Positions 333-18,322 of a stretch of 64,000 nt of DNA are shown here, piece after piece. The notes under the pieces were generated by a model, which saw only the letters and a program-made list of their open reading frames with translations, was not told the DNA's origin and made no database searches. Where the stretch lies: contig JBDHAB010000001.1 of assembly GCA_039588295.1 (NCBI GenBank), positions 288,001 to 352,000 on the forward strand, given 5' to 3'. The first letter of the stretch is position 1, and each line of letters begins with the position of its first letter. Origin of the DNA: Gemmatimonadota bacterium. GTDB taxonomy: Bacteria > Gemmatimonadota > Gemmatimonadetes > Gemmatimonadales > GWC2-71-9. The position numbers were made by a program, and so were the translations under genes.

Positions 333-1373
333 ATGGTCAGTCCAGCAGTAGCCCTACTCATTTTCGGTGCCGCTGCCCTGCTTCTTGCCGGGGTGTTTTG
401 GCCGCGGCAGGGCCTGGTCGCTCGGCTCATGCGCCTCGCAGCCCTGACCGAGCGCGTGCGGCTCGAGGACGCGGTGAAGCACCTGCACGACTGTGACTAT
501 CGAGGTCAACCAGCCTCGGTCGAGAGCGTGGCAGGGGCCTTGGAGGTAACACGGGCTCGTGCGGTGGGCTTCGTTGCGCGGCTCGAGGCACTGGGGCTCG
601 TCCGGACTTCGGCGGAGCGTGTGGTACTCACGTCGGTGGGCCGGGCCGAGGCGCTCAGGCTGCTGCGCAGCCATCGCTTGTGGGAGCGCTACTTGGCAGA
701 TCGCACCGGTTTGGGGCCTGCCGAGTGGCACGACGAGGCGGAACGCCTCGAGCACAGGCTCTCACCCACCAAGGTCGAGGCGTTGGCGTCATCGATGGGG
801 CATCCGGTTTACGACCCCCATGGTGATCCCATCCCTACGGCCGCGGGCAAGCTCCCGCCGCGCGCCGGGTTTGCCGTGACTGCGCTGCGGCCGGGCCAGG
901 CTGCGTCGATCGTGCACTTGGAGGACGAGCCGCGAGCGGTGTTCGAGCAGCTGGTCGCGGCCGGGCTGGCCCCGGGAATGCAAGTGCAGCTCCTCGATGC
1001 GTCCGCCGAGCGCGTTCGCCTGTTGGCCGACGGGCGGGTGCATGCGCTCGAGCCGGTGATCGCCACGAACATCACGGTCGCACCGACTGAGGGGCTGCCG
1101 GAACCCGCCGGGCCGTTCGAAACCCTGGCGGATTTGGAAACCGGAGACCGCGTTGTCGTGCGTGACATCGCGCCGGTGTGCCAGGGTCCCCAGCGGCGAA
1201 GGTTGCTGGACCTCGGCCTGGTGCCGGGCACGGAGGTCGCGGTGGAGTTCAGGGGTCCCCTCGGTGAGCCGATCGCCTATCGCATTCGGGGTGCCGTAAT
1301 CGCGTTGCGACGCGAACAGGCGGAGCTGGTGCGGATCGAGCGAGATGGCGCGTCTGTTGAGGCCGCGACGTGA
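333..1373 (+). CDS. DtxR/MntR-family metal-dependent repressor with N-terminal membrane segment and two FeoA (SH3-like) domains
   Basis: Motifs RSHRLWERYL, EAERLEH and DPHGDPIP; C-terminal RRLLDLGLVPG...PLGEPIAYRIRG (FeoA); hydrophobic N-terminus. ATG at 333 preferred over TTG at 297. Confidence 0.9.
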   Translation: MVSPAVALLIFGAAALLLAGVFWPRQGLVARLMRLAALTERVRLEDAVKHLHDCDYRGQPASVESVAGALEVTRARAVGFVARLEALGLVRTSAERVVLTSVGRAEALRLLRSHRLWERYLADRTGLGPAEWHDEAERLEHRLSPTKVEALASSMGHPVYDPHGDPIPTAAGKLPPRAGFAVTALRPGQAASIVHLEDEPRAVFEQLVAAGLAPGMQVQLLDASAERVRLLADGRVHALEPVIATNITVAPTEGLPEPAGPFETLADLETGDRVVVRDIAPVCQGPQRRRLLDLGLVPGTEVAVEFRGPLGEPIAYRIRGAVIALRREQAELVRIERDGASVEAAT

Positions 1374-3613
1374 CCTCAACGGCGGCCGCTCCCTGTGTGG
1401 GGTGTCATGCGAATCGGGCGAGCAGCCTTGTTCAGCTGGGTGTCCGGCCGGGCCGATGGGACTATCTCGTCGCGCTCGCCGGGAATCCCAACACCGGGAA
1501 GAGCACGGTCTTCAACGCCCTGACTGGGCTGCGTCAACACACCGGGAACTGGCCTGGTAAGACGGTCGTTCGCGCGGAGGGCGGCTTCGAACTCCACGAC
1601 GCTCGGGTCAAGCTCATCGATCTGCCGGGTACGTACTCCCTCCAGGCGGGGAGCGCCGACGAGGAAGTCGCACGCGATTTCATTCTGTTCGGTCGACCCG
1701 ACGTGACGGTCGTGGTAGTCGACGCGACCCGCCTCGAGCGGAACTTGAACCTGGTGCTCCAGATTCTCGAGATCACCGATCGGGTCGTCGTGTGTCTCAA
1801 CCTCATGGACGAGGCTCGCCGTCATGGCGTGGGCATCGACGTTGCCAAGCTCGCCAAGGAACTGGGCGTGCCGGTCATCCCGACCGTGGCCCGCCAGGGC
1901 AACGGCGTTCCCGAGTTGCTGGAGGCGATCCACGAGGTGGCCACCGGGGCAGTGACGACGGCGCCGTTTCGGATCGAGCGGCACCCAGCGGACGTTGAAG
2001 CCGCCATCGGTACACTCGTCCGGACGATCCGTGAGTCCTACCCCGAGCTCCCCAATGCCCGGTGGGTGGCGCTGCGCCTGCTCAATGCGGATGAGCGAGT
2101 CGAATCCGCGGTACGGGCGGGCGATTTGGGCGATCTGTCGGAACGTCCGTGGCTCGAGGCCGGCGAGACGGTCGCGGTGGAGTCGGATCCGGGTGCGTCT
2201 CCCGTGGGGGAGCGGATTCTCGACCACGCGACCTCGCTTCGATGGACGCTCAGCCCCCGGTTCCACGACTCGTTGACCGAGAGTATGTACGGCGAGGCGC
2301 AACGCATTGCCGGCGGGTCGATGGTGCGCGGCCTCAAGCGCACGAAGTTCGACATGGATCGCTTCCTCGACCGTCTATTGACGAGCAAGCGCTTCGGGTT
2401 CCCGATGATGTTGCTCATCCTGGCGCTTGTCTTCTGGGTCACGATCTCCGGGGCCAACGTCCCATCGCAGCTCCTCGCGACGTTGTTCATCGACACGTTA
2501 CATCCGGCGCTCACGGGATTCGCGGCTGCGATCGGGATTCCGCCGTGGATCAACGGTCTCGTGTTGGACGGGGTGTACCTCGCAACCGCCTGGGTCGTGA
2601 GCGTGATGCTGCCGCCGATGGCCATCTTCTTTCCGCTCTTCAGCCTGCTCGAGGACTTCGGTTACCTCCCCCGAGTGGCCTTCAACTTGGACACGCTCTT
2701 CAAGAAGGCGGGTGCGCACGGGAAGCAGGCGCTCACGATGTGCATGGGCTTCGGGTGCAACGCGGCGGGCGTGGTCGCGACGCGGGTCATCGACAGCCCA
2801 CGCGAGCGACTCATCGCAATCATCACCAACAACTTCTCGCTCTGCAACGGCCGCTGGCCCACACAGATTCTCATTGCGACGATCTTCATCGGCGCCCTCG
2901 CACCCGCGCATTTTGCGGGACTCGTAGCCGCGAGTGCCGTGGTCGGCATCGCGGTCCTCGGGATCGTCGCGATGTTCGTGGCGTCGTGGCTGCTCTCGCG
3001 CACGGTGTTGCGGGGCGAGGCAACCACGTTCAGTCTCGAGCTGCCGCCGTATCGTCCGCCGAGGATTCTCCAGACCCTCTATACGTCGATCATCGACCGC
3101 ACCCTCATCGTCTTGTGGCGAGCCGTTCTGTTCGCTGCACCGGCGGGGGCGGTGATTTGGCTGGTCTCGAACGTCTACATCGGCGATGCCAGCCTCGCGA
3201 AGCACCTGATCGACGTGCTCGATCCGTTCGGTCTGCTGATCGGACTCAACGGGGTCATTCTGCTGGCGTACGTTGTGGCGATCCCCGCAAACGAGATCGT
3301 GATTCCCACGGTCCTGATGTTGACGGTGCTGACGCTGGGTTTGGGCGACCTCGGATCTGGTGCCGGAGTGATGTTCGAGCTCAATTCGGCCTCGGCAACG
3401 GGAGACCTGCTGCGTGCGGGCGGGTGGACCCTCGTGACGGGCATCAACCTGATGCTCTTCAGCCTTCTCCACAATCCGTGTTCGACGACACTCTACACGA
3501 TCTACAGGGAAACCGGGAGCGCTAAGTGGACCGCTGTCGCGACGCTGCTGCCGCTCGGCATGGGATTCTCCGTGTGTTTCCTGGTCACGCAGGTCTGGTT
3601 ACTGCTGGCCTGA
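1370..3613 (+). CDS. feoB: Ferrous iron (or Mn) transport protein B
   Basis: G1 GNPNTGKS, GNWPGKTV, DLPGTYSL, NLMDE, MGFGCN gate motif and multi-TM C-terminus. GTGA overlap with the upstream gene. Confidence 0.95.
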   Translation: MTSTAAAPCVGCHANRASSLVQLGVRPGRWDYLVALAGNPNTGKSTVFNALTGLRQHTGNWPGKTVVRAEGGFELHDARVKLIDLPGTYSLQAGSADEEVARDFILFGRPDVTVVVVDATRLERNLNLVLQILEITDRVVVCLNLMDEARRHGVGIDVAKLAKELGVPVIPTVARQGNGVPELLEAIHEVATGAVTTAPFRIERHPADVEAAIGTLVRTIRESYPELPNARWVALRLLNADERVESAVRAGDLGDLSERPWLEAGETVAVESDPGASPVGERILDHATSLRWTLSPRFHDSLTESMYGEAQRIAGGSMVRGLKRTKFDMDRFLDRLLTSKRFGFPMMLLILALVFWVTISGANVPSQLLATLFIDTLHPALTGFAAAIGIPPWINGLVLDGVYLATAWVVSVMLPPMAIFFPLFSLLEDFGYLPRVAFNLDTLFKKAGAHGKQALTMCMGFGCNAAGVVATRVIDSPRERLIAIITNNFSLCNGRWPTQILIATIFIGALAPAHFAGLVAASAVVGIAVLGIVAMFVASWLLSRTVLRGEATTFSLELPPYRPPRILQTLYTSIIDRTLIVLWRAVLFAAPAGAVIWLVSNVYIGDASLAKHLIDVLDPFGLLIGLNGVILLAYVVAIPANEIVIPTVLMLTVLTLGLGDLGSGAGVMFELNSASATGDLLRAGGWTLVTGINLMLFSLLHNPCSTTLYTIYRETGSAKWTAVATLLPLGMGFSVCFLVTQVWLLLA

Positions 3614-3751: not shown

Positions 3752-4195
3752 CTACTGTGACGCCTGACGCAGATACTCGTAAATCGCCCGTGCTTCCTCG
3801 ACCGTCGTCCCCATGGGGACCATCGGAGTTCCGTACTCGGCGAGGAGCTCTTTGGCCGTCGCGTCGTCTCGCAGCATCGAATCCGGCCGCACGGTCATCC
3901 CCACGAACCAATCGTACTCGCGCCGCTCGGTCACACCCCGCAGTGCAGGACCGATCAGTCGCGTATCGAGCTGGTGGCAGCCGACGCAGCCGCGCGACTG
4001 GAAGTAGCCTTCACCCTCGCTCGCGAGCGCTTCGTCGATCGGACCGCTCGGTGCCGCCATCGTCGCGGCGGGCGCGGTCTCGGTGACAGCCGGCTCCGCA
4101 GTGTCGGCCTGCTCAGTTTGCGCGCCTTCTCCGCCACAGCCAAACGCGAGTGCCACCATCAACAAGAAAGCACCATTCCGGGCTTGCATGTTCAC
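3752..4195 (-). CDS. Monoheme cytochrome c lipoprotein
   Basis: Lipobox-like AFGC, Ala/Pro/Thr linker, CVGCH heme motif, IGPAL and distal PM; AAGGAG RBS. Confidence 0.85.
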   Translation of the reverse strand: MNMQARNGAFLLMVALAFGCGGEGAQTEQADTAEPAVTETAPAATMAAPSGPIDEALASEGEGYFQSRGCVGCHQLDTRLIGPALRGVTERREYDWFVGMTVRPDSMLRDDATAKELLAEYGTPMVPMGTTVEEARAIYEYLRQASQ

Positions 4196-4358
4196 CTAAC
4201 TCCTTGTGTGAAGTACCCTCAATTGTCCAAATGACGCGGGCGCACCCTCTCCAGGAGGAATACCCCCACGTCAGGCGAACAAGATGCACTCTCGTCGTGC
4301 AGAAGTGAAGGGGAGGAAACGAAGGATGACGGCCATCGCGACCGTCATCCCTACGAGG

Positions 4359-4742
4359 CTACTTCTCTTTGTGGCTCAAGCTCCATACGTACGCGCCAAC
4401 GGCTCGGATCTGCTTCTCCGAGAGTGCGCTCCCGCCCTTCGGCGGCATGACGGAACCTGTCGACGACTTGTCGGGGCTCACTCCGGCAAGGATGGACTTC
4501 ACGATTCCGTCGAGCGAGCCGTCGCTGTGCAGCCACTCGTCGTCCGTGAGGTCTGCCCCGAGGTTGGGGATGCCCTTCGCGGTAGAGCCATGGCAGGCTG
4601 CACACAAGCCCTGACCCTTGTAGAGCGAGGCACCCTCCTCGATCATCTGTTTCGTGACCTCTTCCTTTTGTGCTTGCGCCAGACCCACCGAGAGTGTGGT
4701 AACGAGTGCCGCAAGGGCGAACGTACGGATCAGCCGTCCCAT
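4359..4742 (-). CDS. Periplasmic monoheme cytochrome c
   Basis: Signal peptide ending AQA, CAACH heme motif, LTDDEWLH and the MPP axial Met. Confidence 0.9.
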   Translation of the reverse strand: MGRLIRTFALAALVTTLSVGLAQAQKEEVTKQMIEEGASLYKGQGLCAACHGSTAKGIPNLGADLTDDEWLHSDGSLDGIVKSILAGVSPDKSSTGSVMPPKGGSALSEKQIRAVGAYVWSLSHKEK

Positions 4743-4761
4743 GCTTCATCCCTCCGATGTC

Positions 4762-5967
4762 TTAGAATGCTGTCGAGAGCCCGATCGTCCACCGGGCTTC
4801 GTCCAGCTGGGTGTCCCACGTTGCTTCTCCGAGCACTCTGAAGTTTCGCCTCACTAGATACCCCGCGCCAGCGGTGAGCGTTTCATAGCGCCCGATGTTC
4901 CCCGGGGCACCGAGCCGCACGTTGAGCAGAGGGCGATCGGCGTCGATGAGGTTGTAGAGTCCCAGGACGTACCAGCGTGCGTTGGCTGGGTGCAGCACCA
5001 GCTCGGCAAACCCGCCATCCAGGGTTGCCTCGGGCTCGCCAGACGTAAAGGTCGGCGTGTCGTCCTCTCGGTGGAGATACTGCACGTTCAACTCGATCGG
5101 CCCTGCCGTGACTGTCGCGTCGGCCCCGGCCATCCAGACGGTATTCTTGACCGTTGGTCCGGTGCCGACTGCTCCCTCCTGTTGTCCGAAGTATCCCATG
5201 GCGCCGAGGCGGAGGTTGGGTGTAAGGTCGCGCGTTACGTGACCGAATACGTTCTTGAAGGGATCGTTGTCGAGTCGGCGGTTCGGCTCCGCTTCCCCTC
5301 TGCCGTTCCCATTCACGACCTCGCCCGTGATTGTAAAGCCCGCGACATCGACCATCACCATCAGACCGCGGTCGTAAGTGAGGTCGGTTGGCTGCAGGCC
5401 GACTCGAGCACGGTAGACGGCGTAATCGTGGTTCTCCAACCGAAGCTCTCGCTTGAACATGGGGTCCGACACCTGAAACTGTCCGGCCGCGAGGTCGATC
5501 GGCTGCCCGGCGATGTTGTCGAGGTACACAAATGCATCCTCGATGCCTCCGACTTCCCCGCGCTCGAACAGGAAGAAGTAGAGGTAGTACGAGAACTTCC
5601 GCGAGATCGGCCCACCGGAGAGAATCTTGACGTTGTACGGGGTTTGTAGGTCGGAGCCGGACTCACCGGCGGTATACGCGCTGATGTACGCGTCCACCCG
5701 GATCGCGAGTGGGAGATCGCGATAGAGTTGGAGGAGTTCGTCACCCGTGTTGATGGTGTCGCGCGGCGGCGCGTTGGCACTCATGCGGAAGCCGTTTCCG
5801 GCGTACTGTTCCCCAAACGCGTTGAGCTTTGGAAGCAGCGTGTGACAGAGACTGCAGCTCACGCGATGGCGCCTGGCAAAGGCCGGAATGAGAGATGCGT
5901 CGGCGATGGGTGCTGCGACACAGGCGATGGCGAGTATGAAGGTGGTGATTCGAGCGGCCCGCAGCAT
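4762..5967 (-). CDS. Cyc2-like fused monoheme cytochrome c / outer-membrane porin
   Basis: Signal peptide, then IPAFARRHRVSCSLCH...PKLNAFGEQYAGNGF (Cyc2-type N-terminal motif), alternating beta-strand pattern and C-terminal Phe. Confidence 0.8.
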   Translation of the reverse strand: MLRAARITTFILAIACVAAPIADASLIPAFARRHRVSCSLCHTLLPKLNAFGEQYAGNGFRMSANAPPRDTINTGDELLQLYRDLPLAIRVDAYISAYTAGESGSDLQTPYNVKILSGGPISRKFSYYLYFFLFERGEVGGIEDAFVYLDNIAGQPIDLAAGQFQVSDPMFKRELRLENHDYAVYRARVGLQPTDLTYDRGLMVMVDVAGFTITGEVVNGNGRGEAEPNRRLDNDPFKNVFGHVTRDLTPNLRLGAMGYFGQQEGAVGTGPTVKNTVWMAGADATVTAGPIELNVQYLHREDDTPTFTSGEPEATLDGGFAELVLHPANARWYVLGLYNLIDADRPLLNVRLGAPGNIGRYETLTAGAGYLVRRNFRVLGEATWDTQLDEARWTIGLSTAF

Positions 5968-6051
5968 GATGGGCTCCTGAAAGGGAGGTTCGTGGTGCTA
6001 CAGGATCAAAACACTTCGGATTGTGACGCCGCGAACGCGCGACCTAGACCG

Positions 6052-6273
6052 CTAGTGCTGCTGGGGATGTGAGTCGTGCGTTCGGGTATCGAGATGAAGG
6101 AGCGTATACAGAGGACAACTGTGGGTCAACGCGGTGGCAGCAAAGAGGAGCGCAAACACGGCGGCAACGAGAGAAATCACCACCTGCTCGTTGAACACCG
6201 TCGCGACGATCAGCAGAACTACGGCGCATGCGCCGCGAATCCAGGCATCCATCCTGCCGATGTTGGGTTGCAT
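6052..6273 (-). CDS. DUF2892 (YgaP-like) small membrane protein
   Basis: NIGRMDAWIR ... two TM segments ... CPLYTLL pattern. Confidence 0.8.
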   Translation of the reverse strand: MQPNIGRMDAWIRGACAVVLLIVATVFNEQVVISLVAAVFALLFAATALTHSCPLYTLLHLDTRTHDSHPQQH

Positions 6274-6360
6274 GGCACCCCGTCCATTTGACATGCCATG
6301 CAGAACTTTGGGGACGCTGTATGAAGCTATCCATAACGCAATGTGAAGGTGCGTTCCGAC

Positions 6361-7749
6361 TTATTCGGTGGGTACGAAACGCGGGATGTCCAGAGTGATC
6401 CGCAAGCCGCCGAGCGGACTCTGGTCAGCATGGATTCGGCCGCCGTGTGCGTGCACGATGGCGGCGGTGATGGTGAGTCCCAGACCCGCGGCGCCGGTGC
6501 GCGCCCTTGCTACGTCACTGCGGTAGAAGTGCTCGAACAGACGTGAAAGTCGCTCGGGCGGCATGCCCGGGCCGGAATCGTCGATGGAGATCGTCACGGT
6601 TCGGAGGCTCGCGGTGACCGCAGCCCGCACGCGCGTGCCGGGGGGAGTATGCTCGATCGAGTTGTCCAAGAGTTGATCCACGGCGACGTTGAGCATTGCG
6701 GGATCGACGAAGGCGCTGGTTTCTTGAGGCGAGCGCTCGAAGTCAACGGTGCGTCCCGCTCCTCGTGTCCGTGCCTTTTGTACCGCGCGCTCCATGATCG
6801 TGCCGACATCCGATTCCATGCGCGACAAGGTCAGTTCGCCCGCCTCGAGACGTGCAAGAAGCGTGAGCGACTCACTAATAGACGTGAGGTGATCGACCTC
6901 CTCTAGGACGCTGCCGAGGATGGCCCGGTATTCCTCGGAGCGGCGGTCCCCCCGCAACGCGATCTCCAATTCCCCTCGCATTGCAGTAAGGGGAGTGCGC
7001 AGGTCGTGACCGGCGTCGGCGATCATGCGGCGTTGCGCCTCGAAGGCACGTTCGAGTCGGCCGAACACCGTGTTGAGGACCTCGATCAGGCCGGCAAACT
7101 CTTCGACATCTGCGTGCGCCGTAATCCGCTGGCCCGCGCCTGGCTGAATCGATTGTGCCTGCTCGGTAATCTCGAGCACCGGTCTGACGGTAGTTGTCGC
7201 GAGCCAGCCTGCGCCGATCGCCGTCGCGACGGTGCCGAGCAGCACCGTGCCCAGCATGAGGAATAGCACCTCACGGGTACTCGCCTGCAAGGGTCGGAGC
7301 GACGCCGCAACCTGCGTGACGACATGTTGGGATCGGCTGCCGGCCGGCGTGGGCGCGTAGTACGAACGCAGCGTCCCGCGCGCCCACTCCTGCGTCGCCC
7401 ACACAGTGTCACCGGTGAGTGCGTGTTCGAAGGCGTCCCGTGCCAACGGGAGCTCCGCCGCCAGCCCCGTGTTCGATTCGATGATGTCACCGTTCTCGTC
7501 CCGTATGGCTACGAATCGGTTCACGCGTTGGATGAACCGATCCACGTCCGCCGAGCCAGGGTGAATGGCGATCGGCAGCCGGGATGCGAGCACCGCGGCC
7601 TCGAGTTGCGCGGATGCCGCCAGGTTCCGGTCGAGGGCCTCCCGCAGAATCCGCCGTGTGCCATGATAGGCCCACAGCGCAATCAGGAGGAGAGCAACGA
7701 AGATGGTGAGGGAGAACCGCACGGCAACCGTGCGGCGGAGAGCATACAT
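6361..7749 (-). CDS. Membrane sensor histidine kinase (CusS/QseC-like, HAMP-HisKA-HATPase)
   Basis: Two TM segments, DAGHDLRTPL H-box, DSGPG and GLGL boxes. Confidence 0.9.
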   Translation of the reverse strand: MYALRRTVAVRFSLTIFVALLLIALWAYHGTRRILREALDRNLAASAQLEAAVLASRLPIAIHPGSADVDRFIQRVNRFVAIRDENGDIIESNTGLAAELPLARDAFEHALTGDTVWATQEWARGTLRSYYAPTPAGSRSQHVVTQVAASLRPLQASTREVLFLMLGTVLLGTVATAIGAGWLATTTVRPVLEITEQAQSIQPGAGQRITAHADVEEFAGLIEVLNTVFGRLERAFEAQRRMIADAGHDLRTPLTAMRGELEIALRGDRRSEEYRAILGSVLEEVDHLTSISESLTLLARLEAGELTLSRMESDVGTIMERAVQKARTRGAGRTVDFERSPQETSAFVDPAMLNVAVDQLLDNSIEHTPPGTRVRAAVTASLRTVTISIDDSGPGMPPERLSRLFEHFYRSDVARARTGAAGLGLTITAAIVHAHGGRIHADQSPLGGLRITLDIPRFVPTE

Positions 7750-8435
7750 CAGCCTTGGGTGTTGTTTGTCTTCTTCAAGCAGAACCCGACGCCGCGGACT
7801 GTTTGAATCAGTCCATCGTAGCCCACCTCACGGAGCTTACGCCGCAGATTGCCGACATGGACATCGACGACGTTGCTTTCGGGATCGAAGTGCATATCCC
7901 ACACCTTCTCCAGCAACTCCGTTCTCCGCACCACGTCCTCGGGATGGAGCATGAAGTGCTCGAGAAGCTGGAACTCACGTGGAGTGAGGTCGAGGGTGTG
8001 TTCCCCGACCCAAGCCTTGTGCTTCAGTCGGTCGAGTTCGAGCGGCCCATAGTTGAGGCGATCGAGCCTTGCCGCGCCGCCCCGACGCACGAGGGCGCGG
8101 AGCCGCGCGAGCATTTCATCGAACTTGAACGGCTTCGTGAGATAGTCATCTGCGCCGGCGTCGAGGCCGCGAACAACGTCCTCGGTGGCGTCGCGCGCCG
8201 TCAGCATGAGAATAGGCGTGTTGCGCCCTTCCCGTCGAAGCTCTGAGGCCACCTGGAGGCCGTTCTTCTTCGGCAGCATCAAGTCCAGGACGATCGCGTC
8301 ATAATCGTTGATGTGTGCGAAGACGGTTGCCTCCTCACCGTCCTTGGCGACATCGACGGCGTAGCCTTCTTCACGAAGGCCCATCTCTATGAATCCAGCA
8401 ACCTTACGGTCGTCCTCGACTACGAGAATGCGCAT
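7749..8435 (-). CDS. OmpR-family response regulator (CusR/CzcR-like)
   Basis: MRILVVEDD start at 8435, LDLMLP, GADDYLTKPF and SNVVDVHVGNLRRKL winged helix. Confidence 0.93.
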   Translation of the reverse strand: MRILVVEDDRKVAGFIEMGLREEGYAVDVAKDGEEATVFAHINDYDAIVLDLMLPKKNGLQVASELRREGRNTPILMLTARDATEDVVRGLDAGADDYLTKPFKFDEMLARLRALVRRGGAARLDRLNYGPLELDRLKHKAWVGEHTLDLTPREFQLLEHFMLHPEDVVRRTELLEKVWDMHFDPESNVVDVHVGNLRRKLREVGYDGLIQTVRGVGFCLKKTNNTQG

Positions 8436-8493
8436 GAAGGGAACCGTAGCCGGGCACGGGTAAGTGGGTGCTGAAGCGACTGTGAACCGGTCT

Positions 8494-9741
8494 TTATGAT
8501 GGCTCCATGCGTCGCGGCACCTGCAGAGAGAAGCGGGCTCCGTGCCCGAGCTGACTCTCGACCCGGAGATCGCCGCCCAAGAGGCGCGCAAGCTTGCGTG
8601 AGAGTGCGAGCCCCAGTCCGGTGCCGCGTTCGGTGTGCTTGCCGGCGCGTTCGAAGGCCTCGAAGATGACCACTTGCTGCTCGGGCGCAATGCCTTCGCC
8701 ATGGTCGACGACGTCGAAGCGCAGTGTGTCGTCCGTCGCGTGGAGCTCGACGCGAATGGCCTGGTCCTGAGGGCTATGTCGTACCGCGTTCGTGAGCAGG
8801 TTGATCAGTATCTGACGGATCCGCTGCGGATCGGTATGGCACTCGACGACCCCGTCCGGGCCAGTCAGCGCGACACCGACGCCGCGCCGCTCGGCCGCGG
8901 GCTCGACCGTCGACACCGCCTCTCGCACGACGTCCCACGCGTCTGCCTTCTCGACAGCGGGCTCGAGTTTGTCCGCATCGATGCGGCTGAGATCGAGCAG
9001 GTCCTCAAGGAGGTTCAGCGCTCGTTCCGCGGACTCCTGCACTTCCAGTGCCGCTCTGGGCGTACTGGGGCTCGTCTTTCGTATCCAGAGCTCGGTCCAT
9101 CCGTGGACCGCCGTGAGCGCGTTGCGCAACTCGTGGTTCGTCATGGCGAAGAAGCGCTCGCGTGAGTCGTGCATCTGCCGAAGTTCGCGGACGAGCCCCT
9201 CGCGTTCCTCGTAGTGTCGGGCGTTTTCGAGGGCCACGGCAGCGTGAGCCGCCAACATCACCGCGAAGGCCTCGTCCTCGGCGGTAAACTCGGGTGCACC
9301 GATCTTCTCCGTCAGGTAGAGGTTCCCGATCGGACCCGTGCGCCCCCATATGGGCACGCCGAGGAACGACTTCATGGGTGTGTGGTGGGGTGGGAACCCC
9401 AACGCCTTCGCATGTTTCCGCAAATCCTTCAGTCGAATGGGCTTTGGGTCGGTTATCAGCAGGCCCAAGAGGCCCTTGCCGGTGGGGGGATGGCCGACCT
9501 GTGCCTCGCTCGCCTGGTTCGTCCCGCTCGTGAGGAACCGTTCGAGCCCGGTCCCCTCCCGGTTGACGACGCCAAGCGCTGCGTAGCGGGCCTCGATCAC
9601 CGCGCGCGCCGACTCCACCACCTCTCGCAGCACTCCGTCCAGATCGAGCGCGGACGTGATGCGGATCGCGGCTTGACTGAGACGTTCCGCGCGCTGCCAC
9701 ACGGTGTGACTACCACGTGAATCGGGAGACATACTGTCCAC
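8494..9741 (-). CDS. Cytoplasmic GAF-domain sensor histidine kinase with DosS/DosT-like GAF
   Basis: GLLGLLITDPKPIRL...GFPPHHTPMKSFLGVPI GAF motif; NHELRNAL H-box; NLLTNA, DHGEG and GTGLGL boxes. Confidence 0.88.
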   Translation of the reverse strand: MDSMSPDSRGSHTVWQRAERLSQAAIRITSALDLDGVLREVVESARAVIEARYAALGVVNREGTGLERFLTSGTNQASEAQVGHPPTGKGLLGLLITDPKPIRLKDLRKHAKALGFPPHHTPMKSFLGVPIWGRTGPIGNLYLTEKIGAPEFTAEDEAFAVMLAAHAAVALENARHYEEREGLVRELRQMHDSRERFFAMTNHELRNALTAVHGWTELWIRKTSPSTPRAALEVQESAERALNLLEDLLDLSRIDADKLEPAVEKADAWDVVREAVSTVEPAAERRGVGVALTGPDGVVECHTDPQRIRQILINLLTNAVRHSPQDQAIRVELHATDDTLRFDVVDHGEGIAPEQQVVIFEAFERAGKHTERGTGLGLALSRKLARLLGGDLRVESQLGHGARFSLQVPRRMEPS

Positions 9742-9839
9742 AAGCTAAACCGGCTCGTGACGTCGGTGCCAGTGTGTAAGGGCTGTCGCGCACTCCTGCC
9801 CGGCGGTAATCTCTGTGCAACCGGAACGGGTGCTCTTCT

Positions 9840-10571
9840 GTGGATCCTACGTTCGTCGTCCTGATCTATTCAGTGGGCGCAGCCAGCGTTAGCGGCCTCG
9901 GGGCGGTCCCGCTGATGGTCCGAGCTCGGCTGCCACTCTCGTGGATCGGGTGGTCGAACGCGCTCGCGGCCGGACTCATGCTGGGAGCCGCCTACGCGCT
10001 GATGGTCATGGGGCTCGAGCGAGTCACCGGGGCCGAAATGCTCGGTGCGTTGATCGGGATCGGTTTTGTGTATTGGACGCACGCAGTCTCAGGCACGGCC
10101 GATCTCGACTTGAACCGCCTCGAGGAGACGAGCCCGGTCTACGGGTACAAGGTGCTGCTCAGCGACACGCTCCACGCGTCCGCCGAAGGCGTGGCCATCG
10201 GCGTCGCGATGACGGTGAGCCTGCCGTTCGGAGCGTTCATGGCGCTCGCGATCGCGGTCCATAACATTCCCGAGGCGACGGTGCTTGCGGCGATCCTCAC
10301 GAGTCGCGGTGTCCGGCTGCGTGACGCGGCGGGGCTCGCCGTTGCCGCCAACGTGAGTCAAGTTCTGCTGGCGATCGTGAGCTTCGCACTCATCACCGCC
10401 GCGCCCGCATTGCTCCCATGGGGACTCGGCTTTGCGGTCGGATCCTTGGTCTATCTCGTGATGGTCGAGCTGCTTCCCGAATGTTACCGACAGGCGGGAC
10501 ACACGAGCATCGCATTGGTGACCATCGTTGCGATGGGGATTCTGGTGCTGCTGGTTGGCGGCGGGATGTAG
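9840..10571 (+). CDS. ZIP (ZupT-like) divalent metal transporter
   Basis: Multi-TM protein with HASAEG and HNIPEA motifs and ELLPE. Confidence 0.85.
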   Translation: MDPTFVVLIYSVGAASVSGLGAVPLMVRARLPLSWIGWSNALAAGLMLGAAYALMVMGLERVTGAEMLGALIGIGFVYWTHAVSGTADLDLNRLEETSPVYGYKVLLSDTLHASAEGVAIGVAMTVSLPFGAFMALAIAVHNIPEATVLAAILTSRGVRLRDAAGLAVAANVSQVLLAIVSFALITAAPALLPWGLGFAVGSLVYLVMVELLPECYRQAGHTSIALVTIVAMGILVLLVGGGM

Positions 10572-10583
10572 GTGAGGTAACAC

Positions 10584-11312
10584 ATGAACCAGGTCTTCGT
10601 TGTGTTCCTCTATGGCCTCGCGACGGCTCTCGCGACTGGACTGGGAGCAGTGCCGTTCGCCTTCGCGCGACGGGTCTCGCCGAGCGCCATTGCGTACGCC
10701 AATGCGGTCGCCTCCGGCCTGATGCTCGGCGCGAGTTTCGGGCTCGTGGCCGAAGGGACGGACTACGGGAGTTGGCAGACTGTGCTCGGCGCATTGTCGG
10801 GTGTGGCGTTCATCCGGCTCACCCAAGTACTCCTGCGGCGACACGACCTTGAGTTTGGCAAGGTCCGCGGCGGGGGTGCGCGGCAGATGCTGTTGATGCT
10901 GATCGTCATGACCGTGCACTCGTTTGCCGAAGGGGTCGCCGTCGGCGTGTCCTTCGGCGGCGGCATGACGCTCGCCTTCGTGATCGTGGTCGCCATCGCC
11001 GTCCACAACATTCCTGAAGGGCTCGCCATCAGTGCCGTGTTGCGTCCCCGTGGCATGTCGGTGGCGGCCTGTGCCGGCTGGAGCATCATGTCCTCGCTCC
11101 CGCAGCCGATCATGGCGGTGCCGGCCTTCCTCCTCGTTGACGCCTTCACCCGCGTGCTTCCGTACGGCATTGGGTTCGCCGCCGGCGCGATGGTCTTCTT
11201 GGTACTCGAAGAGCTATTGCCGGAGGCGTTCGATCGGGCGCGACGTCCCCACGTCGCCCTGGTGGTGAGTCTCACGCTCGTCGGCATGATGGTGTTCCAA
11301 CGCTTCCTGTGA
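10584..11312 (+). CDS. ZIP (ZupT-like) divalent metal transporter
   Basis: HSFAEG and AIAVHNIPEG motifs, ELLPEA; GAGG RBS. Confidence 0.9.
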   Translation: MNQVFVVFLYGLATALATGLGAVPFAFARRVSPSAIAYANAVASGLMLGASFGLVAEGTDYGSWQTVLGALSGVAFIRLTQVLLRRHDLEFGKVRGGGARQMLLMLIVMTVHSFAEGVAVGVSFGGGMTLAFVIVVAIAVHNIPEGLAISAVLRPRGMSVAACAGWSIMSSLPQPIMAVPAFLLVDAFTRVLPYGIGFAAGAMVFLVLEELLPEAFDRARRPHVALVVSLTLVGMMVFQRFL

Positions 11313-11415
11313 CGCGTGGCGGCGTCGCACCCAATGCCGAGAGTGAGAGACAGACGGCGGGAGCACATGGATGCGCTCCCGCCGTGGCTATCCGAGCCGT
11401 GTCACGCGGTTGCCG

Positions 11416-13038
11416 TCAGAACGGCCGGAACCCTGGAGACCCGAACGTCTCCATGGCGAGATGGCTGCTGAGTGGGTAGGCGTATGCGATAACGACGAGC
11501 ACGACTGCCACGACGACCCACACCCACATCCGATCGAAGACACCGAGACGCTGCGGGTTCCCGGCGACCGGCACTGCAAACTCCAGTGCCGGCTGCTCAC
11601 GACGTTGGCCGGCGAGGACAGTGCCCAGCATCACGAGCAGGAAGAAGGACGCACTGATGAAGAGGAGAATGCCTCCGAGTGCAGAGACTAGTGTGAGGCT
11701 TGACCACTGTGCGGCGATCTCGCTGCCACCATACCCTGTCTCGAACACACGCCGCGGCATGCCCATGAGTCCGGTGATGTGGTTCGAAATGGAGAACAGC
11801 AGCATCCCGAGGAACCACAAGTAGGGCTGCACTCTAGCGAGCAGTCCCAACTCGAGTTCTCGGCCCGTCAGTTTCGGCACGAGCCAGTAGGAAGCGCCCA
11901 TGAACGTGAGTGCCGTTGCGGTGCCAACCGTCAAGTGAAAGTGGCCCTGGATCCACGCGGTGTTGTGCACCATCGAGTTCATGCCGAAGGCGGCGTTGAT
12001 GGATCCTCCGAATCCGCCGATGGCGAAGAGCAACATGCTCAGTAACACAGACGCCACCAATGGGTCGCCCCACGGGAGCTTCCCCAACCAGTCGAACAGG
12101 CCGCGCGCGCCCTTCATCCGGCCGGCCACCTCGAGCGACGCGGTCACTGTGAACGCGGTGACGAAGCTGGGAAACAGAATGCCGAAGGTCGTCAGGGTGT
12201 GCACCATCTTCCAGCCCGAACTGATGCCTGGGTCCATGAACTGGTGATGGAATCCGACGGGTGCCGAGAGGATGATGAACAGCGCGAAGACCATTCGAGC
12301 GAGCGGATCACTGAAGAGGCGCCCGCCGGCCACGCGTGGCACGACCGCGTACCAAATCACGTAGGCCGGGATGAGCCAGAAGTACACCAGCGGGTGCCCG
12401 AAGTACCAGAACAGCATTCGGGCGAGCAGTGGATCGACGGTCTCTTTCAGTCCAAGTGACCACGGCACGAGTTGGAACAGCATCTCCACAGCGACGCCGA
12501 CAGTGGCGAGGAGCCACACGATGATCGTGGTCATGATGCCGTAGACCGCGAGGGGTACCGGCTGTCCGGGATTGTCCCGCCGCCACCCCAAGTACGTGGC
12601 GATCGTCACCGCGCTCCAAATCCAGGATCCCACGACCACCAGCGTGAGCCCGATGTAGAATGCCGGATGGGCCTGCATGGGAGGGTAGAACGTGTACAAC
12701 ACGCTGGCCTTCCCCCAAAGAATGGCCCAGCCGGCGGCGAGCGTTCCGATGACCGCGACCCAGAACCCAACCCAGGCGAGTCCGGCGCCCTTGAGCGGTC
12801 GGCCCAGCGCCCGGGTCGTGAGCGCCACGCCCAATCCCATGATGAAGAAGGTCGTGAAGATCAGGGCCATCAGCACGCCATGACCGGTGACCGAGAGGTA
12901 GTACATGCTGGCGGTGCGCCCCGGCAGATCGAGGGCTGCGCGTGACAGCGCCTGCATGAATGCCATGAACGTCGCGATGCCGAAGGCACCCACCGCGACG
13001 CCAATGTTGGCCGTAGCGAGGCGTCGATTGTACATCAT
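11416..13038 (-). CDS. cbaA: ba3-type (B-family) cytochrome c oxidase subunit I
   Basis: All six His ligands present: HGVLM, WYFGHPLVYFW (His-Tyr), GFHHQF, GHFH; GMPRR. Start placed at ATG 13038. Confidence 0.92.
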   Translation of the reverse strand: MMYNRRLATANIGVAVGAFGIATFMAFMQALSRAALDLPGRTASMYYLSVTGHGVLMALIFTTFFIMGLGVALTTRALGRPLKGAGLAWVGFWVAVIGTLAAGWAILWGKASVLYTFYPPMQAHPAFYIGLTLVVVGSWIWSAVTIATYLGWRRDNPGQPVPLAVYGIMTTIIVWLLATVGVAVEMLFQLVPWSLGLKETVDPLLARMLFWYFGHPLVYFWLIPAYVIWYAVVPRVAGGRLFSDPLARMVFALFIILSAPVGFHHQFMDPGISSGWKMVHTLTTFGILFPSFVTAFTVTASLEVAGRMKGARGLFDWLGKLPWGDPLVASVLLSMLLFAIGGFGGSINAAFGMNSMVHNTAWIQGHFHLTVGTATALTFMGASYWLVPKLTGRELELGLLARVQPYLWFLGMLLFSISNHITGLMGMPRRVFETGYGGSEIAAQWSSLTLVSALGGILLFISASFFLLVMLGTVLAGQRREQPALEFAVPVAGNPQRLGVFDRMWVWVVVAVVLVVIAYAYPLSSHLAMETFGSPGFRPF

Positions 13039-13511
13039 GAACCCTCCTCGACGATCAACTTCGCGGCCATGTTGTGATGCCCCGTGCCACAGTACTCGTT
13101 GCACACGATCAGATATTCACCCGGTGTGTCGAACGTCGTGGTGAGTTGGCTGACGTAGCCGGGGATGACCATGGTGTTCACGTTCGTCCCGACGATTTGG
13201 AACCCATGGACGATGTCGGGACTCGTCATGCGGAACGTGACGGGTCTCCCTGCGGGAACCCGGATCTCGCCGGGTTGAAAGACCCAAATCTGGGCGACCA
13301 GCGTCACCTCGACACTGCCGTCCGGATTGACCTTCACGCCGCGGTCGGCGAAGCGGGCGTCAGCGAACACCGTTCGCGGGTCAATGGTCTCGACGTGGCT
13401 CGGCGGCACACGTCCTTGCGAGACCGTGGCGAACCCGATGGCACCGAGAAACAGCACGATAATCGCGCCGGCGGCCCACATCCAGATTTTCTCATAGAGA
13501 TCGATGTGCAT
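13035..13511 (-). CDS. cbaB: ba3-type cytochrome c oxidase subunit II (CuA)
   Basis: Single N-terminal TM, DIVHGF and CNEYCGTGHHNM CuA motif. Confidence 0.93.
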   Translation of the reverse strand: MHIDLYEKIWMWAAGAIIVLFLGAIGFATVSQGRVPPSHVETIDPRTVFADARFADRGVKVNPDGSVEVTLVAQIWVFQPGEIRVPAGRPVTFRMTSPDIVHGFQIVGTNVNTMVIPGYVSQLTTTFDTPGEYLIVCNEYCGTGHHNMAAKLIVEEGS

Positions 13512-13517
13512 GACGTC

Positions 13518-13658
13518 CTACCTCGTCACGACGCCGCGGGGCAGATACACGAAGAGAAAGATCGCGAGCCAGCCGACGGCAAACAGCAAGCCGTAGAGTC
13601 CGACCAGCGCCAGGGTTCCGCGCGGGTGCTTCCCGAGGTCCGGGGGTTGGTCACTCAT
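13518..13658 (-). CDS. cbaD: ba3-type cytochrome c oxidase small subunit IIa (46 aa)
   Basis: MSDQPPDLGKHPRGTLALVGLYGLLFAVGWLAIFLFVYLPRGVVTR: a single TM with the P(K/R)G..A...W...RG pattern of subunit IIa, AAGGAG RBS, directly upstream of subunit II. Below the ORF-track cut-off. Confidence 0.8.
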   Translation of the reverse strand: MSDQPPDLGKHPRGTLALVGLYGLLFAVGWLAIFLFVYLPRGVVTR

Positions 13659-13696: not shown

Positions 13697-14098
13697 TTAG
13701 ATCCTGCCCTCAGCGACGGCGCGCACGATATCGCTTTGCGCGACGACGCCAAGAAGCTCGTCGGCCGAAACGACAAACAGGCGGTGCACGTCTAGCTCGA
13801 GCATCTGTTTGGCAGCCAAGCGCACATCTGCGTCCGGTCCGATGGTTTTCGGGGGCGTGGTCATGATGTCACGCACCGTGGTATCCTCGAAGAATTCTTC
13901 GCCGTCACCGGAGCTCGATCGTTCGGCGGTCGCCTGCACGATGTCGCTGGAGGACAGCACGCCGACCAGCCGCCCGCGGCGATCGACCACCGGTACGGCG
14001 TGCACGTGGGCATCGGCCAACTGCATCACTGCCTCTTGGACCAAGACGTCTTGGTGAACGACCGTGAGATCGGTGATCATCAATGATGCAACGTTCAT
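13697..14098 (-). CDS. CBS-pair domain protein
   Basis: Two CBS repeats (VPVVDRRGRLVGVLSSSDI; VRDIMT...LLGVVAQSDI). Confidence 0.9.
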   Translation of the reverse strand: MNVASLMITDLTVVHQDVLVQEAVMQLADAHVHAVPVVDRRGRLVGVLSSSDIVQATAERSSSGDGEEFFEDTTVRDIMTTPPKTIGPDADVRLAAKQMLELDVHRLFVVSADELLGVVAQSDIVRAVAEGRI

Positions 14099-14198: not shown

Positions 14199-15071
14199 TC
14201 AACGATTCTGGCCCGCCCCCCGGACGGGAACGACCAGCACGGATGTCGGCAGCCGGTTCAGGAGCCGTTCCGTCGTGCTACCGAGCAGCACGCGATCCAC
14301 CCAGCCCTTGCCGTGCGAACCCACGATGACGAGGTCTGCCTTCCATTCGGCGGCTTCGTCGGCTATAGAGCGGGCCGGAGCACCGACCCGAACCACCCTG
14401 TCGAGTTGGCGGCCGGGTGCTGCCGCGTCCAGCAGCTCGTTGGTGCTCGCCTCGGCCAGTCGGATGTGCTCCTCTTCGTTGAGCTGTACGCCTACGTCCG
14501 GGACGGAGGGAAGCGGCTCGACCACGTGAAGGACTCGCAGCGTTGCCGCGAACGCGTTGCTGAACCGCTGCGCCGCGTGGAGTGCCAGCGCGGCGGCATC
14601 TGACTGGTCCACCGCAACCAGCACGCGGTGGAACGTCGTCATCGGTGCTGTGACCACGAGGAGCGGGACATCGATCGTTCGCACCGCGTTGTGGACCGTG
14701 CTCCCACCGAACCATCGGACGGGTGCGGCGTGGTGCTTGCCGCCCAGAACAAGCAACTCGGCTCGGTGTTGGGTGACCGCTTGGGCCAGCATCCACGTCG
14801 GGTTGCCGACGCGGACCTCGAGGCGCTCGAGCGCCTCCGGCTGCACGCGGTTGCGGAGGTACTCCTCGACCGCTCCACGAGCCGCCGCGGTCCACCCCTC
14901 GGCCAGCCGTTCGCGATCTCGTGTGGGAAGATGAGGTGCGGTGGGCTCCTTGGCCACGTGGACCAGGTGGCAGGGCGCACTGGTGGCCTGGGCCACAGCG
15001 AGGCCGGCAGCGGCCGCCTGCACTCCCTCGGGCGAAGGATCGACGCCGACCACGACCGGTCGCCAAGTCAT
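14199..15071 (-). CDS. Tandem universal stress protein
   Basis: Two USP domains; ADLVIVGSHGKG...LLGSTTERLL. Confidence 0.9.
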   Translation of the reverse strand: MTWRPVVVGVDPSPEGVQAAAAGLAVAQATSAPCHLVHVAKEPTAPHLPTRDRERLAEGWTAAARGAVEEYLRNRVQPEALERLEVRVGNPTWMLAQAVTQHRAELLVLGGKHHAAPVRWFGGSTVHNAVRTIDVPLLVVTAPMTTFHRVLVAVDQSDAAALALHAAQRFSNAFAATLRVLHVVEPLPSVPDVGVQLNEEEHIRLAEASTNELLDAAAPGRQLDRVVRVGAPARSIADEAAEWKADLVIVGSHGKGWVDRVLLGSTTERLLNRLPTSVLVVPVRGAGQNR

Positions 15072-15173: not shown

Positions 15174-15244
15174 GCCGTGCCTCCAGGAGGCGGTGAAGCC
15201 GGATTCAGCCCAATTTCACTCCAACTTCATAGCGTATTCGCTAG

Positions 15245-15503
15245 GCTGGGGCCGTCATCCTTCTTGGGTGGCCACTGCGGGAATGCCCTTTGAGGGAAGG
15301 GCCGGCGTTCGCGGCGCCGCTAAGGTTCGAGGGGGTTTTGGCATCGGCCGCAGGCAAGACGAACGGGATCGTTGCGCATGTAATCCGATGCATTGAGACC
15401 GGCAAAGCCCTGTGTCACCGCCCGGTCTATGGCGCATGAACCGAACCTTGGAGGGAAATCCCTCACCCCCGGTGCACGGGAGGGCACCGGGGGTTTCTTT
15501 TTT
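15245..15503 (+). ncRNA. Candidate structured non-coding RNA (family unknown)
   Basis: Intergenic stretch with no credible ORF, several nested helices (15320-15329/15442-15451; 15396-15402/15422-15428) and a + strand intrinsic terminator although both flanking genes are on the - strand. The 5' end is uncertain. Confidence 0.5.
15466..15503 (+). terminator. Rho-independent terminator
   Basis: CCCCCGGTGC-loop-GCACCGGGGG followed by TTTCTTTTTT. Confidence 0.85.
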
Positions 15504-15516
15504 GCCCGGAGTTGGC

Positions 15517-18058: not shown

Positions 18059-18322
18059 TCGTACGTGGCAGACACTGGCCGGATTGCGAGCGAGGTCTCG
18101 ATAGGCCGCTTTCAAGCCGGACCGAATTGGGACATACTTCATAGACAAACGCCGATGCGCGCGGTGGAGCCGCCGTCAGAGTTCGGTCCACCCCGATACC
18201 GCCAGGGAAAGGACTGAGATGCCTCCTGCCTCCAGTGGCGTTCAATGCGTTGGACCGTCACCCCTCGCGCATCCCACGTGCCAGACAAGACCAGGCTCAG
18301 CCCACCTCGATTGGTCTCGACC

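Follow-up and report, generated by a model that had tools for sequence, protein, structure and literature searches.

A Cyc2-type cytochrome-porin and its cytochrome partner in an apparent low-oxygen respiration island of a Gemmatimonadota bacterium

Introduction

Genes for Cyc2 are widely counted in metagenomes as markers of iron oxidation. In the passages of PMC8406198 cited here, the family is defined by three motifs, PxFAR, CxxCH and PxL, the porins OprP and OprO are named as its structural templates, and cluster 3 is described as the most uncertain of its clusters in function. Among the Cyc2 proteins that have been assayed, members of each of the three clusters oxidise Fe(II), as stated in those passages and, for cluster 3, in a passage of PMC13647500, where one such protein accelerated Fe(II) oxidation in E. 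coli. Here we analyse a Cyc2-type gene, two neighbouring monoheme cytochrome genes and a ba3-type oxidase in a stretch of 64,000 nucleotides (the window; positions 288,001 to 352,000 of contig JBDHAB010000001.1, assembly GCA_039588295.1) from a Gemmatimonadota bacterium whose genome is 4.5 Mb and 96% complete.

A preliminary description of the window had read these genes as an iron-to-oxygen chain in a lineage not noted for iron oxidation. At the gene level, this view of the lineage is outdated. Metagenome-assembled genomes of Gemmatimonadota with cyc2 already appear in portions of PMC9769843, PMC11316326 and PMC10367259, FeGenie iron-cycling genes of the phylum appear in part of PMC8478452, and excerpts of PMC7029218 and bioRxiv 10.1101/2025.11.18.688581 belong to the same prior literature. 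Heterotrophic Gemmatimonadota with cyc2 have thus been described before, and this protein adds one member. The reading that we favour, with somewhat better than even confidence, is a low-oxygen respiration island in which Cyc2 is an optional electron inlet and not the head of a dedicated chain from iron to oxygen. We call it optional because relatives repeatedly lose cyc2 and keep the rest.

Results

An intact Cyc2-type cytochrome-porin

The open reading frame at 4762-5967 encodes an intact Cyc2-type cytochrome-porin with a conserved cytochrome partner. Its 401-aa product starts with a hydrophobic N-terminus, continues with SLIPAFARRHRVSCSLCHTLLPKLNAFG..NGF and ends in a C-terminal Phe; the Cyc2 minimum is 365 aa. 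Read by eye, the N-terminus is basic, hydrophobic and ADA-like, a candidate signal peptide for a predicted outer-membrane protein. The single heme motif, CSLCH, occupies residues 38-42, and its C, C and H are invariant in 145/145 aligned homologues. PxL follows four residues past CxxCH (CH-TLL-PKL), with a Pro that is invariant in the alignment. The pre-heme motif, LIPAFARRH, keeps the PxFAR core and fails the strict AXPXFAR[Q/K][T/Y] consensus given in a passage of PMC8406198. A motif scan matched 76 of 81 family members, with KY after FAR in 50, RY in 23, and RH, QY and NY in one each; Tyr holds the second post-FAR column in 140/145 alignment rows.

An AF2 model built from the 145-row alignment has a short helical heme domain followed by 16 long strands (pLDDT 89.7, pTM 0.88). 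Foldseek placed OprP first (2O4V, E 1e-13) and OprO second (4RJW, E 1e-12). The Cyc2-like head and porin body of the preliminary description are thereby borne out in motif order, predicted 16-strand barrel and top folds. By sequence, the protein had no match in Pfam and NCBIfam at E<=0.01 and no meaningful match in the PDB. When Cyc2 was modelled together with the soluble cytochrome and hemes, the complex scored 0.14 against a mark of 0.32, which gives no verdict and is not used as evidence.

Homologues numbered 3111 among 8000 scored candidates, with 1510 representatives at E<=0.001. Those that are close and named come from Gemmatimonadota, mostly Gemmatimonadales; ten distant representatives bore names without information, and the ESM Atlas returned unnamed clusters, in one of which 20% of members carry Porin_O_P. 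The plasmid search gave one weak match for the Cyc2-type protein and, for a paralogue, homologues of the ARQT type only. The family probably belongs to Cyc2 cluster 3, because profile comparison aligned it over its full length with ARKY-type paralogues (E 1e-27) and over the first 107 columns only with the ARQT-type group (E 3e-15), among whose members are plasmid proteins of Caballeronia and Acidiphilium. A passage of PMC9769843 points the same way: the Cyc2 sequences of clusters I and II are assigned there to other phyla, and by elimination only cluster III is left for Gemmatimonadota. The family lies far from the group holding the Burkholderiales and Acidiphilium plasmid homologues.

Distant Cyc2 paralogues of the ARKY and ARQT types occur in many Gemmatimonadales (loci L012-L030), and 38 of 61 genomes match the Cyc2 query at E<=0.001, remnants counted. 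A further protein of the source genome (374 aa; L131:4072-5193; G000:C1:216072-217193) looks exported, has a single CxxCH near its N-terminus (PYLALRTGLKCAQCH) and matches nothing in NCBIfam at 1e-15; it is possibly another cytochrome-porin type.

A conserved cytochrome partner

Two monoheme cytochrome genes follow cyc2 in the same direction, as the preliminary description had it. The soluble one (4359-4742) starts 19 bp downstream and encodes a CcoP-like domain with a conserved Met. The lipoprotein one (3752-4189) lies 163 bp past it, and its product has an LAFGC lipobox and an acidic Ala/Pro linker.

A genome scan yielded 274 confirmed cyc2 loci, and the best 80 of them were compared (47 Gemmatimonadota and 33 others). 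Flanks reach up to 10 kb per side and many are shorter. A small monoheme cytochrome is encoded directly downstream of cyc2 in 25/47 Gemmatimonadota loci, 45 of which show a downstream gene, and in 0/33 of the others. Other genes of interest are rare in the 47 loci: ba3 in 2, cbb3 in 1, nosZ in 1, feoB in 1 and ZIP in 3. With counts of 25/47 and 2/47, cyc2 is genuinely paired with the cytochrome, and its linkage to ba3 is no general feature. The soluble cytochrome is likely the Cyc2 partner.

A tree was built from 82 full-length members and 13 outgroup rows, with partial genes excluded. Gemmatimonadota and other loci largely form sister clades of 46 and 31 sequences (FastTree support 0.98 and 0.94). 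The pairing with the cytochrome spans the Gemmatimonadota clade, deep branches included.

Outside Gemmatimonadota, cyc2 has a different neighbour. A conserved pentaheme cytochrome of 450 aa is encoded directly upstream in 29/33 loci, in Ignavibacteria, Aminicenantes, Zixibacteria, Calditrichota and other hosts, many of which are anaerobes or facultative anaerobes. This protein (for example L090:8569-9915) has one CxxxCH or CxxCH and four CxxCH motifs, with a predicted C-terminal beta-sandwich; its model shows a helical cap and beta-sandwich (pLDDT 60.2). It matches PDB 5ZE8 weakly (E 7e-6) and resembles MccSep/ExtKL in size, in its five hemes and in a DG[IV]P motif present in most copies.

The pentaheme partner in the sister clade argues for a pore that works outward or both ways. 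When short of O2, the cell would discharge surplus electrons by way of the cytochromes and Cyc2, with soluble Fe(III) chelates, humics or sulfur species as acceptors. Several multiheme clusters in the source genome are consistent with such a flow. Both partner cytochromes of this locus look like His/Met class I proteins, however, and such cytochromes are usually high-potential. In addition, a search of 61 Gemmatimonadales genomes, a set without a positive control, did not turn up the pentaheme partner. A passage of PMC13692758 gives a midpoint of -130 mV for one Cyc2, which favours outward flow, and oxidation and reduction cannot be separated by annotation according to part of PMC11316326; the excerpts of the Cyc2 literature cited here report no Cyc2 acting as a reductase. 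We consider outward flow quite unlikely.

Repeated loss of cyc2 within the genus

The genus is represented by nine genomes, including the source genome (G000). The genomes compared in this section are metagenome assemblies, and kin among them are not independent. cyc2 is intact in G000, G003 and G006 only. In the other six, the spacing from ygaP, the gene before cyc2, to the cytochromes is 85-425 bp against about 1310, and remnants of the cyc2 ends are clear in G001, G002, G004, G007 and G008 and weak in G005. Remnant breakpoints differ. In the island tree, eroded copies are scattered among intact ones, which implies at least three separate losses. Both cytochromes are present in 9/9 genomes, in six of which cyc2 is deleted or eroded. 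The kinase with a GAF domain, encoded upstream of ygaP, is found in 8/9; in the ninth, the contig begins inside the cluster.

The ba3 type of the window occurs in G000 and G007 only, and four other genus genomes hold a 44-46% relative elsewhere. Intact cyc2 and this ba3 occur together in 1/9 genomes, the source genome itself. G007 and G016 have ba3 and both cytochromes and no intact cyc2, while G032 has ba3 and the soluble cytochrome and no cyc2; in G016 and G032 the cluster is retained with ba3, and cyc2 is absent. Among 60 relatives, 17 carry ba3 at >=60% identity: 3 with an intact close cyc2, 1 with a contig-end fragment and 13 without, several of these 13 carrying distant Cyc2 paralogues. 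Conversely, 4/8 relatives with an intact close cyc2 have no match to the ba3 query above 33% identity.

A probable low-oxygen setting

The GAF domain of the 8494-9741 kinase matches that of mycobacterial DevS (E 7e-37), and the two share the His of the GH(L/P)P motif in the alignment. We take this His to be the heme ligand of DevS GAF-A, and the kinase is predicted to be a heme gas or redox sensor. It is present in 31/36 family genomes. Of the GAF-kinase loci outside the genus, 16 were inspected (G016, G032, G027, G022 and, in part, L149-L162), most with Usp and several with ba3 or cbb3. The cassette is joined by Usp, CBS, Hsp20, RtcB and MgtC genes and by an oxidase, which is ba3 in G007, G016, G032, G024, G027 and L043 and cbb3 in L067, L155, L156 and L158. 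In 15/47 Gemmatimonadota cyc2 loci there is at least one Usp, CBS, Hsp20, RtcB, Acg, MgtC or baeRF gene. Sets of Usp/CBS/Hsp20/RtcB type typify DosR/FixK hypoxia regulons.

The microaerobic setting proposed earlier is supported by the DosS/DevS-type kinase together with the Usp and CBS genes. The flanking usp, CBS and ygaP genes and the nature of the GAF domain were absent from the preliminary description. On this showing, the cluster resembles a low-oxygen island more closely than the metal island it had been called.

Searches with consensus patterns gave no strict FNR, DosR or Fur box. A TTCA repeat box with an 11-bp period stands before ygaP in 12/12 loci and in the usp spacer in 8/8. Exact triple copies number 12 in the source genome, and all are intergenic, where about 0.4 of 4.5 Mb is intergenic. 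It is likely that a widespread regulator binds the box, or that the box is part of promoters.

Metal genes do adjoin the cluster. The preliminary description had feoB and two ZIP genes alongside, and library matches confirm them; mntR-feoA lies with feoB. They suggest metal homeostasis, in which Cyc2 would shift the redox state of surface iron for uptake or detoxification with FeoB and ZIP, and the second kinase and its regulator resemble heavy-metal two-component systems. feoB is convergent with the cytochrome genes, though, and it is not a stable part of the cluster: it is in 1/47 cyc2 loci, and ZIP in 3/47. It also has its own palindrome, TAGGTGGACCTA at 261-272 before mntR-feoA/feoB, which resembles a DtxR/MntR box. 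G007 retains feoB with cyc2 reduced to a remnant, and the transporters would suit metal supply to the oxidase equally well. Homeostasis of this kind is very unlikely as the role of Cyc2. Of the metal island, the linkage of the transporters did not hold, and the metal-like scores of the second kinase and regulator did, below cut-off.

Optional inlet or dedicated chain

In a dedicated chain, electrons would run from Fe(II) through Cyc2, the soluble cytochrome, the lipoprotein cytochrome and ba3 to O2, and the parts would be selected as a unit. They do lie within 10 kb in the same direction, and Fe(II) oxidation has precedent in the Cyc2 family. This chain is nevertheless unlikely in our judgement. 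Intact cyc2 with this ba3 is confined to one genus genome, half of the eight intact-cyc2 relatives lack a ba3-query match above 33% identity, and 13 of the 17 close-ba3 relatives lack an intact close cyc2. The oxidase is in 2/47 loci, many of them with less than 10 kb per side. A conserved cyc2-ba3 linkage, whose absence the preliminary description had itself named as grounds for refutation, is not supported by these counts.

Several observations weigh against an optional inlet in a low-oxygen island. The full arrangement of the window, including ba3 and feoB, also exists in L043, and it is old because it is kept there too. cyc2 lies beside a high-affinity oxidase in G024, L060 and L067 (ba3 in the first two, cbb3 in L067). 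These cases favour a dedicated chain. L160 and L161 are GAF-kinase loci without the low-oxygen context. The GAF motif was found in 8/47 cyc2 loci (by regex, with one match unverified and one island locus missed), so most family members lie outside such islands. The triple TTCA copies adjoin mostly unrelated genes and the usp-spacer copy faces away from usp. The box is therefore no proof of co-regulation, and we rejected it as a signal specific to a respiration regulon. The models that fit the membrane kinase and OmpR regulator best are those of heavy-metal sensors, though below cut-off, and a metal signal may therefore act here. Finally, the second heme ligand of the Cyc2-type protein is not evident; the best-conserved Met (130/145 rows) sits in a barrel strand.

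The ba3 oxidase and other candidate electron sinks

The oxidase is a complete B-family ba3, as described earlier, with subunits IIa, II and I, and its genes are 5.4 kb from the Cyc2-type gene. Subunit I matches solved ba3 structures at E 1e-123, and no other oxidase type does better than 1e-16. The subunit retains its His and cross-link Tyr motifs, and subunit II has the CuA motif. The source genome also encodes an alternative complex III (ACIII)-like cluster, a caa3 oxidase and a Sec-type clade II NosZ; no bd oxidase was found in it. In support of the heterotrophic host proposed earlier, the genome shows one RuBisCO-like protein, below all cut-offs, in a search that covered the Calvin-Benson-Bassham (CBB) cycle and no other carbon-fixation pathway. 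CBB autotrophy was rejected on this ground.

Heme-copper subunit I homologues 31-35% identical to this ba3 (E about 1e-65) occur in G003, G006, G017, G037, G055 and others, and are perhaps of a B-family-derived NO reductase type. A large multiheme cluster (L128 and L129; G000:C4:112001-150000) encodes proteins with 4-21 CxxCH motifs beside cytochrome b-like, Rieske-like and NrfD-like neighbours. It is a candidate extracellular electron transfer system.

The lipoprotein cytochrome has as its top PDB match 3CP5 (E 2e-21), which we take to be Rhodothermus marinus cytochrome c. A passage of PMC8552683 reports that R. marinus ActE reacts with soluble cytochrome c. Homologues of the lipoprotein cytochrome were found in 14 genomes of other genera. 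In 9 of these the gene stands directly upstream of nosZ, and in one it is 0.7 kb upstream; in two it lies farther from nosZ on the same contig, and two genomes have no nosZ match. The nosZ of these neighbourhoods is clade II. The lipoprotein cytochrome is likely a membrane-tethered donor to CuA enzymes, and the two cytochromes may outlast cyc2 because they shuttle electrons into such enzymes.

This association with nosZ also raises N2O as the main sink. Cyc2 and the cytochromes would then feed clade II NosZ, and Fe(II) would assist the reduction of N2O at the boundary between oxic and anoxic zones. The nosZ of the source genome has no adjoining cytochrome gene of its own. Against this, nosZ was found in 3/9 genus genomes, G003 and G006 with their intact cyc2 not being among the three, and it is in 1/47 cyc2 loci. 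N2O as the main sink is highly improbable. In L045 (4599-9611), cyc2, the soluble cytochrome, the lipoprotein cytochrome and a nosZ homologue stand in one run behind the same GAF-kinase cassette, a point on the side of N2O.

Layout of the locus

Every part named in the preliminary description, from the Cyc2-like reading frame and two cytochromes to ba3, feoB and ZIP, lies where it had been placed (Table 1). On the minus strand, the order runs from ba3 IIa/II/I (13658-11416) through the GAF kinase, regulator and membrane kinase (9741-6361) to ygaP, the 401-aa reading frame and the two cytochromes. The two ZIP genes and mntR-feoA/feoB are on the plus strand, and CBS, usp and an MBL-fold gene are upstream of ba3. 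ygaP is likely the first gene of a ygaP-cyc2-cytochrome unit, and usp that of a usp-CBS-ba3 operon. G+C in the cluster is 61.5-64.5% against 60-67% across the window. This flat profile led us to reject a compositional island.

Divergent from usp, at 15250-15504 (+), is a conserved structured non-coding RNA of ~250 nt with a strong terminator at its end. It is present in 8/8 aligned loci, with two-sided change at 14/82 predicted pairs. Rfam yielded a weak terminator-like match only, and the 6S model found nothing in the genome. The RNA is possibly a divergent 6S or a new RNA. Farther on, 18245-24949 encodes a kinase of 2200 aa that contains numerous PAS-like repeats; response regulators come after it.

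Table 1. Features of the Cyc2-type locus and its flanks, in window coordinates.
Feature	Position	Strand	Basis or remark
MntR/DtxR-type repressor fused to FeoA domains	333..1373	+	Pfam Fe_dep_repr_C + FeoA; start from gene caller
FeoB ferrous iron transporter	1370..3613	+	TIGR00437 above cut-off
Lipoprotein monoheme cytochrome c	3752..4189	-	LAFGC lipobox; top PDB match 3CP5
Soluble periplasmic monoheme cytochrome c	4359..4742	-	CcoP-like domain, conserved Met
Cyc2-type monoheme cytochrome + predicted 16-strand porin, 401 aa	4762..5967	-	Motifs, AF2 model, OprP/OprO folds
YgaP-like (DUF2892) small membrane protein	6052..6273	-	PF11127; 84 bp before cyc2
CTTCAC..TTA..CTTCAT repeat box, 11-bp period	6321..6348	-	Upstream of ygaP, in 12/12 island loci
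Membrane histidine kinase, CusS/CzcS-like	6361..7749	-	Below cut-off
OmpR-family response regulator	7749..8435	-	85-95% identity across island loci
Soluble GAF histidine kinase, DosS/DevS-type GAF domain	8494..9741	-	E 7e-37 to DevS GAF
Two ZIP-family metal transporter genes	9840..11312	+	PF02535
ba3 (B-family) oxidase subunit I	11416..13038	-	E 1e-123 to solved ba3 structures
ba3 oxidase subunit II	13035..13511	-	CuA site
ba3 oxidase subunit IIa, 46 aa	13518..13658	-	Precedes subunit II in relatives too
CBS-pair protein	13697..14098	-	38 bp upstream of ba3 IIa
Tandem universal stress protein (usp)	14199..15071	-	Library match + gene spacing
Sigma70-like promoter facing usp	15173-15144	-	Promoter scan; kept in 4 aligned loci
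Triple TTCA repeat in usp spacer	15204-15229	+	In 8/8 loci

Discussion

For the cyc2 genes, motifs, predicted fold, synteny and losses described above, we propose the following regulation, partners, substrate and direction of flow. The DosS-type heme-GAF kinase would sense falling O2 and act with the OmpR-type regulator, switching on the usp-CBS-ba3 and ygaP-cyc2-cytochrome units (step 1). The two monoheme cytochromes would serve as general periplasmic shuttles from alternative complex III to the CuA enzymes ba3, caa3 and clade II NosZ (step 2). Where cyc2 is intact, as in the source genome, the heme of its product would take electrons from a small reduced species entering the pore; precedent in the family makes dissolved Fe(II) the most likely one. 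The adjoining soluble cytochrome would receive these electrons, which would add to the same pool in a cell that feeds on organic carbon (step 3).

A broader version of this scheme joins the DosS-like sensor and Cyc2 inlet to both ba3 and clade II NosZ, so that a sediment heterotroph would oxidise Fe(II) with trace O2 or N2O. The Cyc2 branch would then be a modular conduit whose chemistry is set by its periplasmic partner, monoheme here and an uncharacterised pentaheme enzyme in other phyla. We regard this version as decidedly improbable.

With cyc2 intact in 3/9 genus genomes while its neighbours persist, caution is due in reading lithotrophy from cluster-3-like matches in heterotrophs. The genus also supplies natural pairs with and without cyc2. 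If Fe(II) oxidation under an oxygen sensor is true, common sediment Gemmatimonadales would be part-time iron oxidisers, possibly coupled to N2O removal.

Comparison with known systems

The closest described counterparts are Acidithiobacillus Cyc2, Zetaproteobacteria Cyc2, Leptospirillum Cyt572 and the cluster 3 Cyc2 of 'Ca. Mariimomonas'. Shared with them are a signal-like N-terminus, one N-terminal CxxCH with PxFAR before it and PxL four residues after, a length of >365 aa, a predicted 16-strand barrel nearest OprP/OprO, and a c-type cytochrome gene next door, as beside plasmid-borne homologues. The motif differs, FAR[QK][TY] there and FARRH here. This protein has a heterotrophic host, stands in a GAF-kinase island and is frequently lost; its Fe(II) activity is putative. 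Identity with Geobacter ExtI was rejected, since a passage of PMC5877670 describes ExtI as an OprO/P-like porin without a cofactor motif and this protein has CxxCH.

The sister-clade pentaheme cytochrome is built like MccSep in size, hemes, predicted fold and motif. The catalytic Cys or Sec of MccSep is absent, and no conserved extra Cys or Sec was found among the copies.

Mycobacterial DosS/DosT and the present kinase have a GAF domain in common, in which the GH(L/P)P His lines up with that of DevS GAF-A, and the DosR regulon shares the neighbours Usp, CBS, Hsp20, RtcB and an Acg/Rv3131-type nitroreductase. By definition, DosS/DosT-DosR has a second GAF domain and a NarL-type DosR partner. 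Here there is one GAF and HisKA kinase, an OmpR-type regulator and a second membrane kinase. The kinase likely works like DosS, yet it falls outside the DosS/DosT-DosR systems.

With the ba3 oxidases of Thermus thermophilus and Aquifex, the enzyme shares the IIa-II-I gene order, the active-site His/Tyr motifs and the CuA motif, at the E-value given above. It differs in being co-oriented with usp and CBS in an apparently regulated island, with a putative donor cytochrome. The wider chain resembles that of Rhodothermus marinus in its ACIII-like cluster, caa3 and 3CP5-like cytochrome c. In this bacterium, a lipid anchor is predicted for the cytochrome, whose homologues accompany nosZ, and the chain has an outer-membrane Cyc2 as an addition.

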